From a virus (Duplodnaviria; Heunggongvirae; Uroviricota; Caudoviricetes), in the IMG/VR virus record IMGVR_UViG_2681813233_000001: 6,498 nt of DNA; one strand, given 5' to 3'. Under the pieces are notes generated by a model that ran no database searches, had not been told where the DNA came from, and worked only from the letters and a program-made list of their open reading frames with translations. Shown piece by piece: positions 1,373-5,757 of this stretch. The first letter of the stretch is position 1. Each line of letters opens with the position of its first letter. The position numbers and the translations under genes are program-made.

Positions 1373-1705
1373 ATGACGAGCAAAGAAACCTTTACCCATT
1401 ACCAGCCGCTGGGCAACAGTGACCCGGCTCATACCGCAACCGCGCCCGGCGGATTGAGTGCGAAAGCGCCTGCAATGACCCCGCTGATGCTGGACACCTC
1501 CACCCGTAAGCTGGTTGCGTGGGATGGCACCACCGACGGTGCTGCCGTTGGCATTCTTGCGGTTGCTGCTGACCAGACCAGCACCACACTGACGTTCTAC
1601 AAGTCCGGCACGTTCCGTTATGAGGATGTGCTCTGGCCGGAGGCTGCCAGCGACGAGACGAAAAAACGGACCGCGTTTGCCGGAACGGCAATCAGCATCG
1701 TTTAA
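1373..1705 (+). CDS. D: Head decoration protein gpD, 110 aa
   Basis: ATG 1373 with AAGGGA (1362-1367) 5 nt upstream; stop TAA 1703-1705. Translation [27 protein letters not shown]... matches lambda gpD. The ATG at 1367 is in frame but overlaps the ribosome-binding site. Confidence 0.9.
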
Positions 1706-1726
1706 CCTTACCCTTCATCACTAAAG

Positions 1727-1747
1727 GCCGCCTGTGCGGCTTTTTTT
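1727..1747 (+). terminator. Intrinsic-terminator-like hairpin between D and E: GCCGC-CTGT-GCGGC followed by TTTTTTT
   Basis: Perfect 5-bp GC stem 1727-1731 / 1736-1740 with a 4-nt loop, extendable by A:U pairs, followed by a T7 run at 1741-1747 and a second T7 run at 1754-1760 directly before the E start codon. Confidence 0.4.
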
Positions 1748-1760
1748 ACGGGATTTTTTT

Positions 1761-2786
1761 ATGTCGATGTACACAACCGCCCAGCTGCTGGCGGCAAATG
1801 AGCAGAAATTTAAGTTTGATCCGCTGTTTCTGCGTCTCTTTTTCCGTGAGAGCTATCCCTTCACCACGGAGAAAGTCTATCTCTCACAAATTCCGGGACT
1901 GGTAAACATGGCGCTGTACGTTTCGCCGATTGTTTCCGGTGAGGTTATCCGTTCCCGTGGCGGCTCCACCTCTGAATTTACGCCGGGATATGTCAAGCCG
2001 AAGCATGAGGTGAATCCGCAGATGACCCTGCGTCGCCTGCCGGATGAAGATCCGCAGAATCTGGCGGACCCGGCTTACCGCCGCCGTCGCATCATCCTGC
2101 AGAACATGCGTGACGAAGAGCTGGCCATTGCTCAGGTCGAAGAGATGCAGGCAGTTTCTGCCGTGCTTAAGGGCAAATACACCATGACCGGTGAAGCCTT
2201 CGATCCGGTTGAGGTGGATATGGGCCGCAGTGCGGCGAACAACATCACGCAGTCCGGCGGCACGGAGTGGAGCAAGCGTGACAAGTCCACGTATGACCCG
2301 ACCGACGATATCGAAGCCTATGCGCTGAACGCCAGCGGAGTGGTGAATATCATCGTGTTTGATCCGAAAGGCTGGGCGCTGTTCCGTTCCTTCAAAGCCG
2401 TCAAGGAGAAGCTGGATACCCGTCGCGGCTCTAATTCCGAGCTGGAGACAGCGGTAAAAGACCTGGGCAAAGCGGTGTCCTATAAGGGGATGTATGGCGA
2501 TACGGCGATCGTCGTGTATTCCGGACAGTACGTGGAAAACGACGTCAAAAAGAACTTCCTGCCGGACAACACGATGGTGCTGGGGAACACTCAGGCACGC
2601 GGTCTGCGCACCTATGGCTGCATTCAGGATGCGGACGCACAGCGCGAAGGCATTAACGCCTCTGCCCGTTACCCGAAAAACTGGGTGACCACCGGCGATC
2701 CGGCGCGTGAGTTCACCATGATTCAGTCAGCACCGCTGATGCTGCTGGCTGACCCTGATGCGTTCGTGTCCGTACAACTGGCGTAA
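1761..2786 (+). CDS. E: Major capsid protein gpE, 341 aa
   Basis: ATG 1761, stop TAA 2784-2786. Translation MSMYTTAQLLAANEQKFKFDPLFLRLFFRESYPFTTEKVYL... matches lambda gpE. The ORF-track start at 1734 would place the start codon inside the upstream hairpin and T-run. Confidence 0.95.
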   Translation: MSMYTTAQLLAANEQKFKFDPLFLRLFFRESYPFTTEKVYLSQIPGLVNMALYVSPIVSGEVIRSRGGSTSEFTPGYVKPKHEVNPQMTLRRLPDEDPQNLADPAYRRRRIILQNMRDEELAIAQVEEMQAVSAVLKGKYTMTGEAFDPVEVDMGRSAANNITQSGGTEWSKRDKSTYDPTDDIEAYALNASGVVNIIVFDPKGWALFRSFKAVKEKLDTRRGSNSELETAVKDLGKAVSYKGMYGDTAIVVYSGQYVENDVKKNFLPDNTMVLGNTQARGLRTYGCIQDADAQREGINASARYPKNWVTTGDPAREFTMIQSAPLMLLADPDAFVSVQLA

Positions 2787-2788
2787 TC

Positions 2789-2815
2789 ATGGCCCTTCGG
2801 GGCCATTTTCTCTCT
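2789..2815 (+). terminator. Hairpin with UUCG-type tetraloop plus T-rich tail immediately 3' of E (ATGGCCC-TTCG-GGGCCAT-TTTCTCTCT)
   Basis: Perfect 7-bp stem 2789-2795 / 2800-2806 with loop TTCG 2796-2799, followed by the T-rich tract 2807-2815. It begins 3 nt after the E stop and sits just upstream of the FI ribosome-binding site. Confidence 0.4.
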
Positions 2816-2846
2816 GTGGAGGAGTCCATGACGAAAGATGAACTGA

Positions 2847-3224
2847 TTGCCCGTCTTCAGGTCGCTGGGTGAGCAACTGAACCGTGATGTCAGCCTGACG
2901 GGGACGAAAGAAGAACTGGTGCTCCGTGTGGCAGAGCTGGAAGAGGAGCTTGATGACACGGATGACGCTGCCGGTCAGGACACATCTGTCAGCCCGGAAA
3001 ATGCGCTGACCGGACATGAAAATGAGGTGGTATCAGCGCAGCCGGATACCGTGATTGATACGGCTGCTCTGGTCACGGTCGTGGCACTGGTGACGCTGCA
3101 TACTGATGCACTTCACGCCACGCGGGATGAGCCTGTGGCATTTGTGCTGCCGGGAACGGCGTTTCGTGTCTCTGCCGGTGTGGCAGCCGAAATGACAGAA
3201 CGCGGCCTGGCCAGAATGCAATAA
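2847..3224 (+). CDS. FI: gpFI-like DNA-packaging / head assembly protein, 5' end frameshifted relative to its native ATG at 2828 (possible pseudogene or sequencing error)
   Basis: The ORF 2847-3224 encodes ...SLGEQLNRDVSLTGTKEEL...DEPVAFVLPGTAFRVSAGVAAEMTERGLARMQ, matching lambda gpFI. The native-looking start ATG 2828 (GGAGGAG at 2818-2824) reads MTKDELIARLQVAG and stops at TGA 2870-2872 in a different frame. The long frame has only TTG 2847 as a start and no in-frame ATG until near its 3' end. Confidence 0.6.
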   Translation: MPVFRSLGEQLNRDVSLTGTKEELVLRVAELEEELDDTDDAAGQDTSVSPENALTGHENEVVSAQPDTVIDTAALVTVVALVTLHTDALHATRDEPVAFVLPGTAFRVSAGVAAEMTERGLARMQ

Positions 3225-3235
3225 CGGGAGGCGCT

Positions 3236-3589
3236 GTGGCTGATTTCGATAACCTGTTCGATGCTGCCATTGCCCGCGCCGATGAAACGATACGCGGGTA
3301 CATGGGAACGTCAGCCACCATGACATCCGGTGAGCAGTCCGGCGCAGTAATACGTGGTGTTTTTGATGATCCTGAAAATATCAGCTATGCCGGACAGGGC
3401 GTACGCGTTGAAGGCTCCAGCCCGTCCCTGTTTGTCCGGACTGATGATGTGCGGCAGCTGCGGCGCGGCGACACGCTGACCATCGGTGAGGAAAACTTCT
3501 GGATAGACCGGATTTCGCCGGATGATGGCGGAAGCTGTCATCTCTGGCTTGGGCGGGGCGTACCGCCTGCCGTTAACCGTCGCCGCTGA
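3236..3589 (+). CDS. FII: Head-tail joining protein gpFII, 117 aa
   Basis: GTG 3236 with GGGAGG (3226-3231) 4 nt upstream; stop TGA 3587-3589. Translation (V)ADFDNLFDAAIARADETIRGYMGTSAT... matches lambda gpFII. Confidence 0.9.
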   Translation: MADFDNLFDAAIARADETIRGYMGTSATMTSGEQSGAVIRGVFDDPENISYAGQGVRVEGSSPSLFVRTDDVRQLRRGDTLTIGEENFWIDRISPDDGGSCHLWLGRGVPPAVNRRR

Positions 3590-4578: not shown

Positions 4579-5319
4579 ATGCCTGTACCAAATCCTCTGG
4601 CACCGGTGAAAGGGGCCGGGACCACCCTGTGGGTTTATAAGGGGAGCGGTGACCCTTATGCAAACCCGCTTTCAGACGATGACTGGTCGCGTCTGGCAAA
4701 AGTTAAAGACCTGACGCCCGGCGAACTGACCGCTGAGTCCTATGACGACAGCTATCTCGATGATGAAGATGCAGACTGGACTGCGACCGGGCAGGGGCAG
4801 AAATCTGCCGGAGATACCAGCTTCACGCTGGCGTGGATGCCCGGAGAGCAGGGGCAGCAGGCGCTGCTGGCGTGGTTTAATGAAGGTGATACCCGTGCCT
4901 ATAAAATCCGCTTCCCGAACGGCACGGTCGATGTGTTCCGTGGCTGGGTCAGCAGTATCGGTAAGGCGGTGACGGCGAAGGAAGTGATCACCCGCACGGT
5001 GAAAGTCACCAACGTAGGACGTCCGTCGATGGCAGAAGATCGCAGCACGGTAACAGCGGCAACCGGCATGACCGTGACGCCAGCCAGCGCTTCCGTAGTG
5101 AAAGGGCAGAGCACCACGCTGACCGTGGCATTCCAGCCGGAGGGCGCAACTGACAAGAGCTTCCGTGCGGTGTCAGCGGATAAAACAAAAGCCACCGTGT
5201 CGGTCAGTGGTATGACCATCACCGTGAAAGGTGTTGCTGCAGGCAAGGTCAACATTCCGGTTGTATCCGGTAATGGTGAACTTGCTGTGGTTGCAGAAAT
5301 CACCGTCACCGACAGTTAA
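4579..5319 (+). CDS. V: Major tail tube protein gpV, 246 aa, with C-terminal Ig-like (Big_2-type) domain
   Basis: ATG 4579 with GAGGA (4570-4574) upstream; stop TAA 5317-5319. Translation [42 protein letters not shown]... matches lambda gpV. The ORF-track start at 4549 overlaps U and has no ribosome-binding site. Confidence 0.9.
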
Positions 5320-5334
5320 TCCGGAGAGTCAGCG

Positions 5335-5757
5335 ATGTTCCTGAAAACCGAATCATTTGAACATAACGGTGTGACCGTCACGCTTTCTGAACTGTCAGCC
5401 CTGCAGCGTATTGAGCATCTCGCCCTGATGAAACGGCAGGCAGAACAGGCGGAGTCAGACAGCAACCGGAAGTTTACTGTGGAAGACGCCATCAGAACCG
5501 GCGCGTTTCTGGTGGCGATGTCCCTGTGGCATAACCATCCGCAGAAGACAAAGATGCCGTCCATGAATGAAGCCGTTAAACAAATTGAGCAGGAAGTGCT
5601 TACCACCTGGCCCACAGAGGCAATTTCTCATGCTGAAAACGTGGTAATGCGTCTGTCCGGTATGTATGAGTTTGTGGTGAATGATGCCCCTGAACAGGCA
5701 GAGGACGCCGGGCCTGCAGAGCCTGTTTCTGCGGGAAAGTGTTCGACGGTGAGCTGA
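5335..5757 (+). CDS. G: Tail assembly chaperone gpG, 140 aa
   Basis: ATG 5335 with GGAGAG (5323-5328) upstream; stop TGA 5755-5757. Translation MFLKTESFEHNGVTVTLSELSALQRIEHLALMKRQAEQ... matches lambda gpG. Confidence 0.9.
   Translation: MFLKTESFEHNGVTVTLSELSALQRIEHLALMKRQAEQAESDSNRKFTVEDAIRTGAFLVAMSLWHNHPQKTKMPSMNEAVKQIEQEVLTTWPTEAISHAENVVMRLSGMYEFVVNDAPEQAEDAGPAEPVSAGKCSTVS

Follow-up and report, generated by a model that had tools for sequence, protein, structure and literature searches.

Stem-loops standing directly after the major capsid gene are an already known kind of element, and the one that follows gene E in the lambda-type locus studied here belongs with those annotated in the GenBank records of its relatives. 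The N15 record (AF064539) carries stem_loops labelled 'putative rho-indep. transcription terminator', one separating its D and E homologues and one immediately following its major head gene, the HK225 record (JQ086371) marks both positions as 'rho-independent terminator', and the HK97 record (NC_002167) places putative terminators after the major head gene and on either side of the major tail gene. In P22 (NC_002371), a stem_loop after coat gene 5 is described as 'putative; similar in location to stem-loops in phage HK97 and phage lambda'; it reads AGGGGC-UGCG-GCCCCU, is followed by UUCUUUAU and GGAG, and has the same architecture as that of lambda. The literature searched yielded no experimental basis for the N15, HK225, HK97 and P22 annotations. 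Strong hairpins also fold at both HK97 positions flanking the major tail gene (L269; 3193-3220 and 3944-3963).

Late transcription in lambda starts from PR' and is carried out by a polymerase that Q has made terminator-resistant (PMC7547250). In phage L, a predicted terminator ends the procapsid module inside a late operon with a single promoter, and the 2020 paper that describes it states that the roles of intra-late-operon terminators 'are not known', giving as possibilities partial termination or the stopping of spurious, non-antiterminated transcription (PMC8022706).

Hairpins that directly follow an abundantly needed structural gene, with read-through downstream, occur in other phages as well. 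The phiX174 terminators TJ, TF and TG lie after structural genes and each block 20-40% of transcription (bioRxiv 10.1101/2020.03.05.979765). In SPP1, a predicted terminator (8775-8815) starts at the stop of major capsid gene 13 (end 8777). T7 has the leaky terminator Tphi after gene 10. None of these three phages transcribes its structural genes with a host polymerase that is processively antiterminated, so that partial termination is plausibly real in them, whereas in lambda Q should largely cancel it.

Stem-loops are also known to protect 3' ends, among them the REP elements in malE-malF, the puf operon hairpins, and tI and sib of lambda. Like the element described here, these are stable hairpins between a highly expressed upstream and a weakly expressed downstream cistron. 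Terminator hairpins have been reported to raise the stability of upstream mRNA against RNases, and point mutations in lambda tI are cited as affecting termination and RNA stability alike (PMC11696848).

The stretch of DNA analysed (the window, 6,498 bases in all) covers the head and proximal tail region of a late operon of the lambda type, as judged from lambda annotation and the list of open reading frames. Its identity over positions 2400-3300 is 96.5% with lambda (J02459) and 99.1% with phage phiSTEC1575-Stx2k, which is among the best matches. The gene upstream of the hairpin, taken for the major capsid gene in an earlier note made from the sequence alone, is E; its product shares 98.2% protein identity with lambda E, and the annotation agrees. 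The E-FI region (window 2300-3400) is found at an identity of at least 80% in 3,314 of 5,426 complete E. coli genomes, where it is prophage-borne and reaches up to five copies per genome; the E capsid module with its hairpin is among the commonest prophage segments in E. coli. Genes are placed by lambda annotation and the open reading frame list, and the features of the window are as follows.

5-1363: genes C/Nu3
1367-1705: gene D
1724-1743 (1724..1747 with the T run), + strand: D-E intercistronic terminator-like hairpin, AAGGCCGC-CUGU-GCGGCUUU
1761..2786, + strand: gene E, major capsid protein, 341 aa
2784-2786: E stop codon TAA, followed by TC at 2787-2788
2789..2806, + strand: E-FI hairpin, 7-bp stem ATGGCCC/GGGCCAT with a C(UUCG)G tetraloop, -12.3 kcal/mol
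2789-2795: 5' arm of the hairpin, ATGGCCC
2796-2799: loop of the hairpin, TTCG
2800-2806: 3' arm of the hairpin, GGGCCAT
2807..2815, + strand: pyrimidine-rich tail TTTCTCTCT, an imperfect U-tract directly after the hairpin
2816..2830, + strand: FI translation start region, consisting of GT, then the Shine-Dalgarno, TCC and ATG
2818-2824: FI Shine-Dalgarno, GGAGGAG
2828-2830: FI start codon ATG
From 2828: gene FI
After FI, in this order: genes FII, Z, U, V, G and T

Two nucleotides separate the E stop codon from the hairpin, whose stem consists of seven perfect pairs, five of them G-C, closed by an extra-stable C(UUCG)G tetraloop (C2795, UUCG 2796-2799, G2800). In isolation it folds with a free energy of -12.3 kcal/mol; it appears in the MFE and centroid folds alike in a 91-nt context, and its pair probabilities are 0.60-0.99 in a 300-nt context. 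Sequence and folds thus bear out exactly, coordinates included, the perfect 7-bp UUCG hairpin that the earlier note had described directly after the major capsid gene. The stem lies within the range of intrinsic terminators (G+C-rich, about 5-14 bp, loop of 3-8 nt), and a simple terminator scan for a stem plus T-run detects the element under a lenient rule of 5 T in 8.

The hairpin of lambda itself is identical, and the tail alone differs, reading TGTTTCTCT in this position. Together with the last U of the stem, the tail of the window reads UUUU and then CUCUCU. Intrinsic terminators have an uninterrupted or nearly uninterrupted U-tract of about 7-9 nt directly behind the stem. The U-tracts here, UUUCUCUCU in the window and UGUUUCUCU in lambda, are both broken by C or G, that of lambda more so, and the window tail passes the lenient 5-T-in-8 rule. 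The pyrimidine tail is confined to the plus strand; the reverse strand presents the same stem with a CGAA loop and without a T-rich tail, on which ground a minus-strand function was rejected.

The ribosome-binding site of FI starts about 10 nt past the stem. The FI Shine-Dalgarno, with the initial two bases of the ATG, lies within a weak hairpin, GUGGA-GGAG-UCCAU (2816-2829; -4.2 kcal/mol, pair probability about 0.6), and C-to-T variants in relatives (GTCTATG, GTTCATG) turn its G-C pairs into G.U wobbles, leaving it unbroken. This small hairpin may dampen FI translation.

An Rfam scan of positions 1600-3000 gave no significant match, the best one overlapping the E-FI hairpin being PhotoRC-I (14.2 bits, E = 1.3; gathering score 45). 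RNase III requires a stem of roughly 20 bp, and an RNase III site was rejected because the 7-bp stem is much shorter; in this the element differs from sib, which is an RNase III site. A REP element was rejected on sequence, the E-FI hairpin being an 18-nt tetraloop hairpin that is single-copy in the window and unlike the REP consensus, a repeat of about 35 nt. Full-text searching of the literature did not find the exact sequence GGCCCTTCGGGGCC, nor did the literature searched contain transcript 3' ends, half-lives or mutant phenotypes for the E-FI hairpin.

The D-E hairpin, which the earlier note had also proposed, is likewise real: it runs into seven T, its pair probabilities exceed 0.95, and its shape is that of a far more canonical terminator than the E-FI hairpin. 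It forms the upstream bracket of gene E, so that the two structures do stand on either side of 1761-2786 as had been claimed, and the homologous position is annotated as a putative rho-independent terminator in N15 and HK225. No hairpin follows the major tail gene V in the window, where the V-G junction (5317-5335) is only 15 nt long and hairpin-free. Gene V is also highly expressed, and a rule that a hairpin follows an abundantly expressed gene is, in lambda, true of E and not of V. A second terminator-like hairpin, GAACCCGC-CTATGC-GCGGGTTT and then TCTTTTGTGC, lies at 110-140 within the coding sequence of gene C and was found by terminator, hairpin and inverted-repeat scans.

The elements of N15, HK225, HK97 and P22 resemble that of lambda in lying directly after the major capsid gene within a single late operon, and in their anatomy of a 6-7-bp G+C-rich stem, a tetraloop, a pyrimidine-rich tail and the next Shine-Dalgarno. 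Those of N15 and HK225 share a GGCCC/GGGCC core with lambda's and are its true homologues, whereas the stems of HK97 and P22 are unrelated to it in sequence. The loops differ throughout (UUCG in lambda, AUUC in N15, UGUC in HK225, GAAA in HK97 and UGCG in P22).

Conservation was examined first in a close set of 83 sequences, comprising the window and 82 relatives. The 18-nt hairpin is invariant in all of them, except for an A-to-G change at the first base in three loci that retains a G.U pair, and variation in the gap falls mostly in the tail and the FI leader. A broader sample took 20 representatives of E-family lineages, the more distant ones from GenBank and IMG/VR; HK97 and P22, for which the phage search with E listed no capsid gene, brought it to 22. 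A strong hairpin stands in the post-capsid gap in all 20 sampled E-family lineages, and in 22 of 22 when HK97 and P22 are counted, always in the first gap after the capsid gene and in the orientation of the late operon. Variants that illustrate its range are:

N15: GUGGCCC-AUUC-GGGCCAC
HK225: loop UGUC
L126: GGCCC-UGCG-GGGCC
L165: loop UCCG
L160: GGCCC-UUCG-GGGCC, then UUUUUUAU
D2 type: CGGGGGC-GAAAU-GCCCCCG, then UGUCUUUU
569R10 type: AAGAGCC-GAAA-GGCUCUU, then UUUU
L259: GGGAGCC-GCCG-GGCUCCC
Alteromonas P24: AGGCGGG-UUUAU-CCCGCCU

The last four have unrelated stems, as do Suzuki, Vibrio K243, Serratia Smarc1, the Chi-like Salmonella phage 35, Phobos and Rhodobacter RcMcLean, six phages that have the hairpin and whose capsid proteins are 27-34% identical to E. 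In a hand-registered alignment of 19 tetraloop variants, which was cut by hand around the predicted hairpins and is biased towards structure, pairing reaches 95.5% of cells, compared with 82.6% in shuffles and no more than 59% after sliding the partners, and four of the seven stem pairs are altered on both sides. Two variants with 5-nt loops were left out of the pair count because MAFFT placed the gap at the end and not in the loop.

Nucleotide diversity in 78 N15-like loci provided a test independent of that alignment. It is about 0-0.2 in stem columns and about 0 at the GGCCC/GGGCC core, compared with 0.33 at third positions in the final 100 codons of E and about 0.5-0.6 for most of the spacer positions that adjoin the hairpin; the loop varies (0.1-0.6). 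The stem, less diverse than synonymous sites and spacer, is under purifying selection, and the E-FI hairpin is conserved in structure over sequence, as are other members of the post-capsid stem-loop class.

UNCG loops are present in 11 of the 22 representatives (UUCG in seven, UGCG in two, UCCG and UACG in one each) and GNRA loops in three, giving 14 of 22 with one or the other. Suzuki, Smarc1, Phobos and P22 carry UNCG on unrelated stems. As UNCG is expected in 1.6% of random tetraloops, the excess is large and indicates selection for fast-folding, stable hairpins; a bias towards stable tetraloops is likewise known for E. coli terminators. The earlier emphasis on UUCG was therefore sound in so far as UNCG and GNRA loops are enriched across lineages, but it does not carry over to the nearest other clade, N15/HK225, where UUCG is not conserved and the ordinary loops are AUUC, UGUC, UGUU, UUUC and UGAU.

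The sequence beyond the stem is less constant. A U-rich tail (at least 5 U in the next 8 nt) follows the hairpin in 12 of 22 representatives, with clear U6-U7 runs in the L160 and 569R10 types, and seven of 22 have three U or fewer. The next start codon lies within about 25 nt of the hairpin end in 18 of 22 (21 nt in the window) and 37-51 nt away in Suzuki, Smarc1, Phobos and RcMcLean.

The structure of the E-FI hairpin by itself is not improbable. Perfect hairpins of 7 bp or more number three in the window and 3.0 on average in its dinucleotide shuffles; at least one such hairpin with a free energy of -12.3 kcal/mol or better arises in 47% of whole-window dinucleotide shuffles, and an argument from rarity in the whole window was given up on that account in favour of position and conservation. 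Within the 41-nt E-FI gap, one of 100 composition-matched shuffles folds equally well, and in the gaps of other lineages the shuffles that equal the lineage's own hairpin number 0-10 of 100 in a first set and 0-2 of 60 in a second. What is non-random about the E-FI hairpin is its place and its persistence, not its structure alone.

With high confidence, then, we regard the E-FI element as a terminator-like RNA hairpin that is under selection and belongs to the known, widespread class standing after phage capsid genes. Since the hairpin is under selection, a function at the RNA level, on the plus strand, is very likely on the comparative sequence evidence. The lambda late operon yields protein ratios spanning orders of magnitude from one antiterminated transcript, and the conserved hairpins on either side of its most abundant gene readily suggest themselves as contributors to that control. 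The comparative pattern of a universal hairpin, a selected stem, enriched tetraloops and a dispensable U-tract narrows the options for what such hairpins do, and involves no new kind of element.

Our tentative reading of the mechanism, held with slightly less than even confidence, is that the element is a leaky hairpin of the terminator type which Q-modified polymerase mostly reads through and which serves chiefly as a 3' decay barrier for E mRNA. Folding and the selection on the stem show that the hairpin is very likely to form as soon as the ribosome that finishes at the E stop has departed. Given its imperfect U-tract it would be at best a weak intrinsic terminator, and the terminator-resistant polymerase would mostly continue into FI and the tail genes, so that the main effect would be post-transcriptional. 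The trigger might be an endonucleolytic cut in the single-stranded AUUUUCUCUCU just downstream or, alternatively, decay that arrives from remote parts of a transcript of about 25 kb. In either case the hairpin would block 3'-to-5' exonucleases, and the E segment (D and E with the D-E hairpin) would outlive the FI-and-tail segment and so contribute to the large output of E. Secondarily, the hairpin may halt polymerase that has not been modified by Q. That the hairpin is never missing, whereas the U-rich tail is missing in about a third of lineages, favours stability over a reading by termination only.

Two observations run counter to a decay barrier: a U-rich tail, kept in most enterobacterial versions, is needless for blocking exonucleases and points to some termination function, and V has no downstream hairpin in this window. 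Sampson, Hendrix, Huang and Casjens (PNAS 1988) reportedly concluded that the relative yields of lambda late proteins are governed by the rates of translation initiation and not by how much mRNA there is or how stable it is; in that case a contribution from stability would be modest.

A stronger version, possible but on the whole unlikely, is that in Q-antiterminated operons the hairpin is no terminator at all but a dedicated decay barrier which, aided by the D-E hairpin and by an AU/pyrimidine stretch directly downstream that RNase E would attack, would carve a discrete, long-lived E or D-E mRNA out of the 25-kb transcript. Were this true, mRNA stability would contribute measurably to the several-hundred-fold excess of E, and the view that translation initiation alone sets lambda late-protein ratios would need revision. 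It would also answer the question, put in the phage L paper (PMC8022706), of what intra-late-operon 'terminators' do.

The earlier note had offered both partial termination and 3'-end stabilisation, and from the comparisons made here termination appears the less likely of the two. A working partial intrinsic terminator would stop some polymerase at about 2810-2815 during lytic growth, leaving fewer transcripts from FI onward than of E and tuning stoichiometry at the level of transcription in the manner of the leaky phiX174 TJ, TF and TG, which block 20-40% each (bioRxiv 10.1101/2020.03.05.979765). The element passes the scan for a stem plus T-run, 12 of 22 representatives have a U-rich tail and the L160 and 569R10 types have U6-U7 runs, homologous or analogous elements are named putative terminators in the N15, HK225 and HK97 records, and partial termination is among the possibilities given for phage L (PMC8022706). 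We nevertheless consider it unlikely. It fits poorly with established lambda biology because the late polymerase from PR' is Q-antiterminated (PMC7547250), and Q modification should largely cancel termination. The window has an interrupted U-tract (UUUCUCUCU), lambda a more interrupted one (UGUUUCUCU) and seven of 22 lineages none at all, whereas the hairpin is universal. The stem, 2 nt past the stop, lies within the footprint of a ribosome terminating there, and coupled translation would be expected to hinder its folding behind the polymerase. Finally, the much better D-E terminator upstream, if effective, would lower E relative to D and so work against E. On these four grounds a decay barrier is preferred to genuine partial termination, and the preference is only moderate because most enterobacterial versions retain the U-rich tail.

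It is doubtful that the hairpin is solely an insulator against non-antiterminated transcription, from spurious promoters or Q-less read-in such as occurs in a prophage, with no role on the lytic Q-modified transcript. The phage L paper names this possibility explicitly for intra-late-operon terminators (PMC8022706), the anatomy is terminator-like, and costs in the silent state could matter for a region that is prophage-borne in the 3,314 E. coli genomes counted above. Insulation, however, does not account for placement after the major capsid gene in unrelated families, including the virulent Casjensviridae, nor for retention of the hairpin in lineages without a U-tract.

Slightly less probable still is a translational role, in which the hairpin would uncouple the heavy ribosome traffic at the E stop from FI initiation and set the 5' edge of the FI ribosome-binding site, the U/C-rich stretch being a single-stranded standby or S1-binding site for FI and not a terminator tail. 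FI protein is needed in small amounts only. The close spacing seen in 18 of 22 representatives (within about 25 nt, 21 nt in the window) would suit such a role, as would the pyrimidine stretch leading straight into the FI Shine-Dalgarno and the small hairpin around that site and the start codon, whose pairs natural variants retain as wobbles. The next start is nevertheless 37-51 nt away in Suzuki, Smarc1, Phobos and RcMcLean, and the class is equally present where the genes that follow the capsid gene are of quite another sort.

It is very improbable, and effectively ruled out by the comparisons, that the palindrome is due to chance or serves at the DNA level, for instance by binding a protein, and lacks an RNA function. 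Although about half of shuffled windows hold an equally strong hairpin somewhere and the arms are an exact palindrome as DNA, the position is conserved in all sampled lineages despite differing stems, the stem is under purifying selection relative to synonymous sites, pairs show compensatory changes, stable tetraloops (relevant to RNA or single strands only) are enriched, and the tail is strand-specific.

In the D2 record (L005, OM475427, 2229-2300; also L168-type loci), FI is annotated to start at an ATG in the loop of the post-capsid hairpin, 18 nt past the E stop, and a conserved Shine-Dalgarno AGGGGG with a ATGGCAACGAAAGA start lies about 50 nt after that stop; the FI start in this record looks mis-called. 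In the window, FI is frameshifted at 2860-2872 by an extra C at about 2863 (GGTCGCTGG, where relatives have GGTGCTGG or CTCGCTGG), which brings a TGA at 2870-2872 into frame after 14 codons, and the remainder of FI runs on in an open reading frame at 2847-3224. The insertion is absent from all 83 close relatives compared, so that the window holds a defective prophage copy, or else the extra C is a sequencing error or was introduced.
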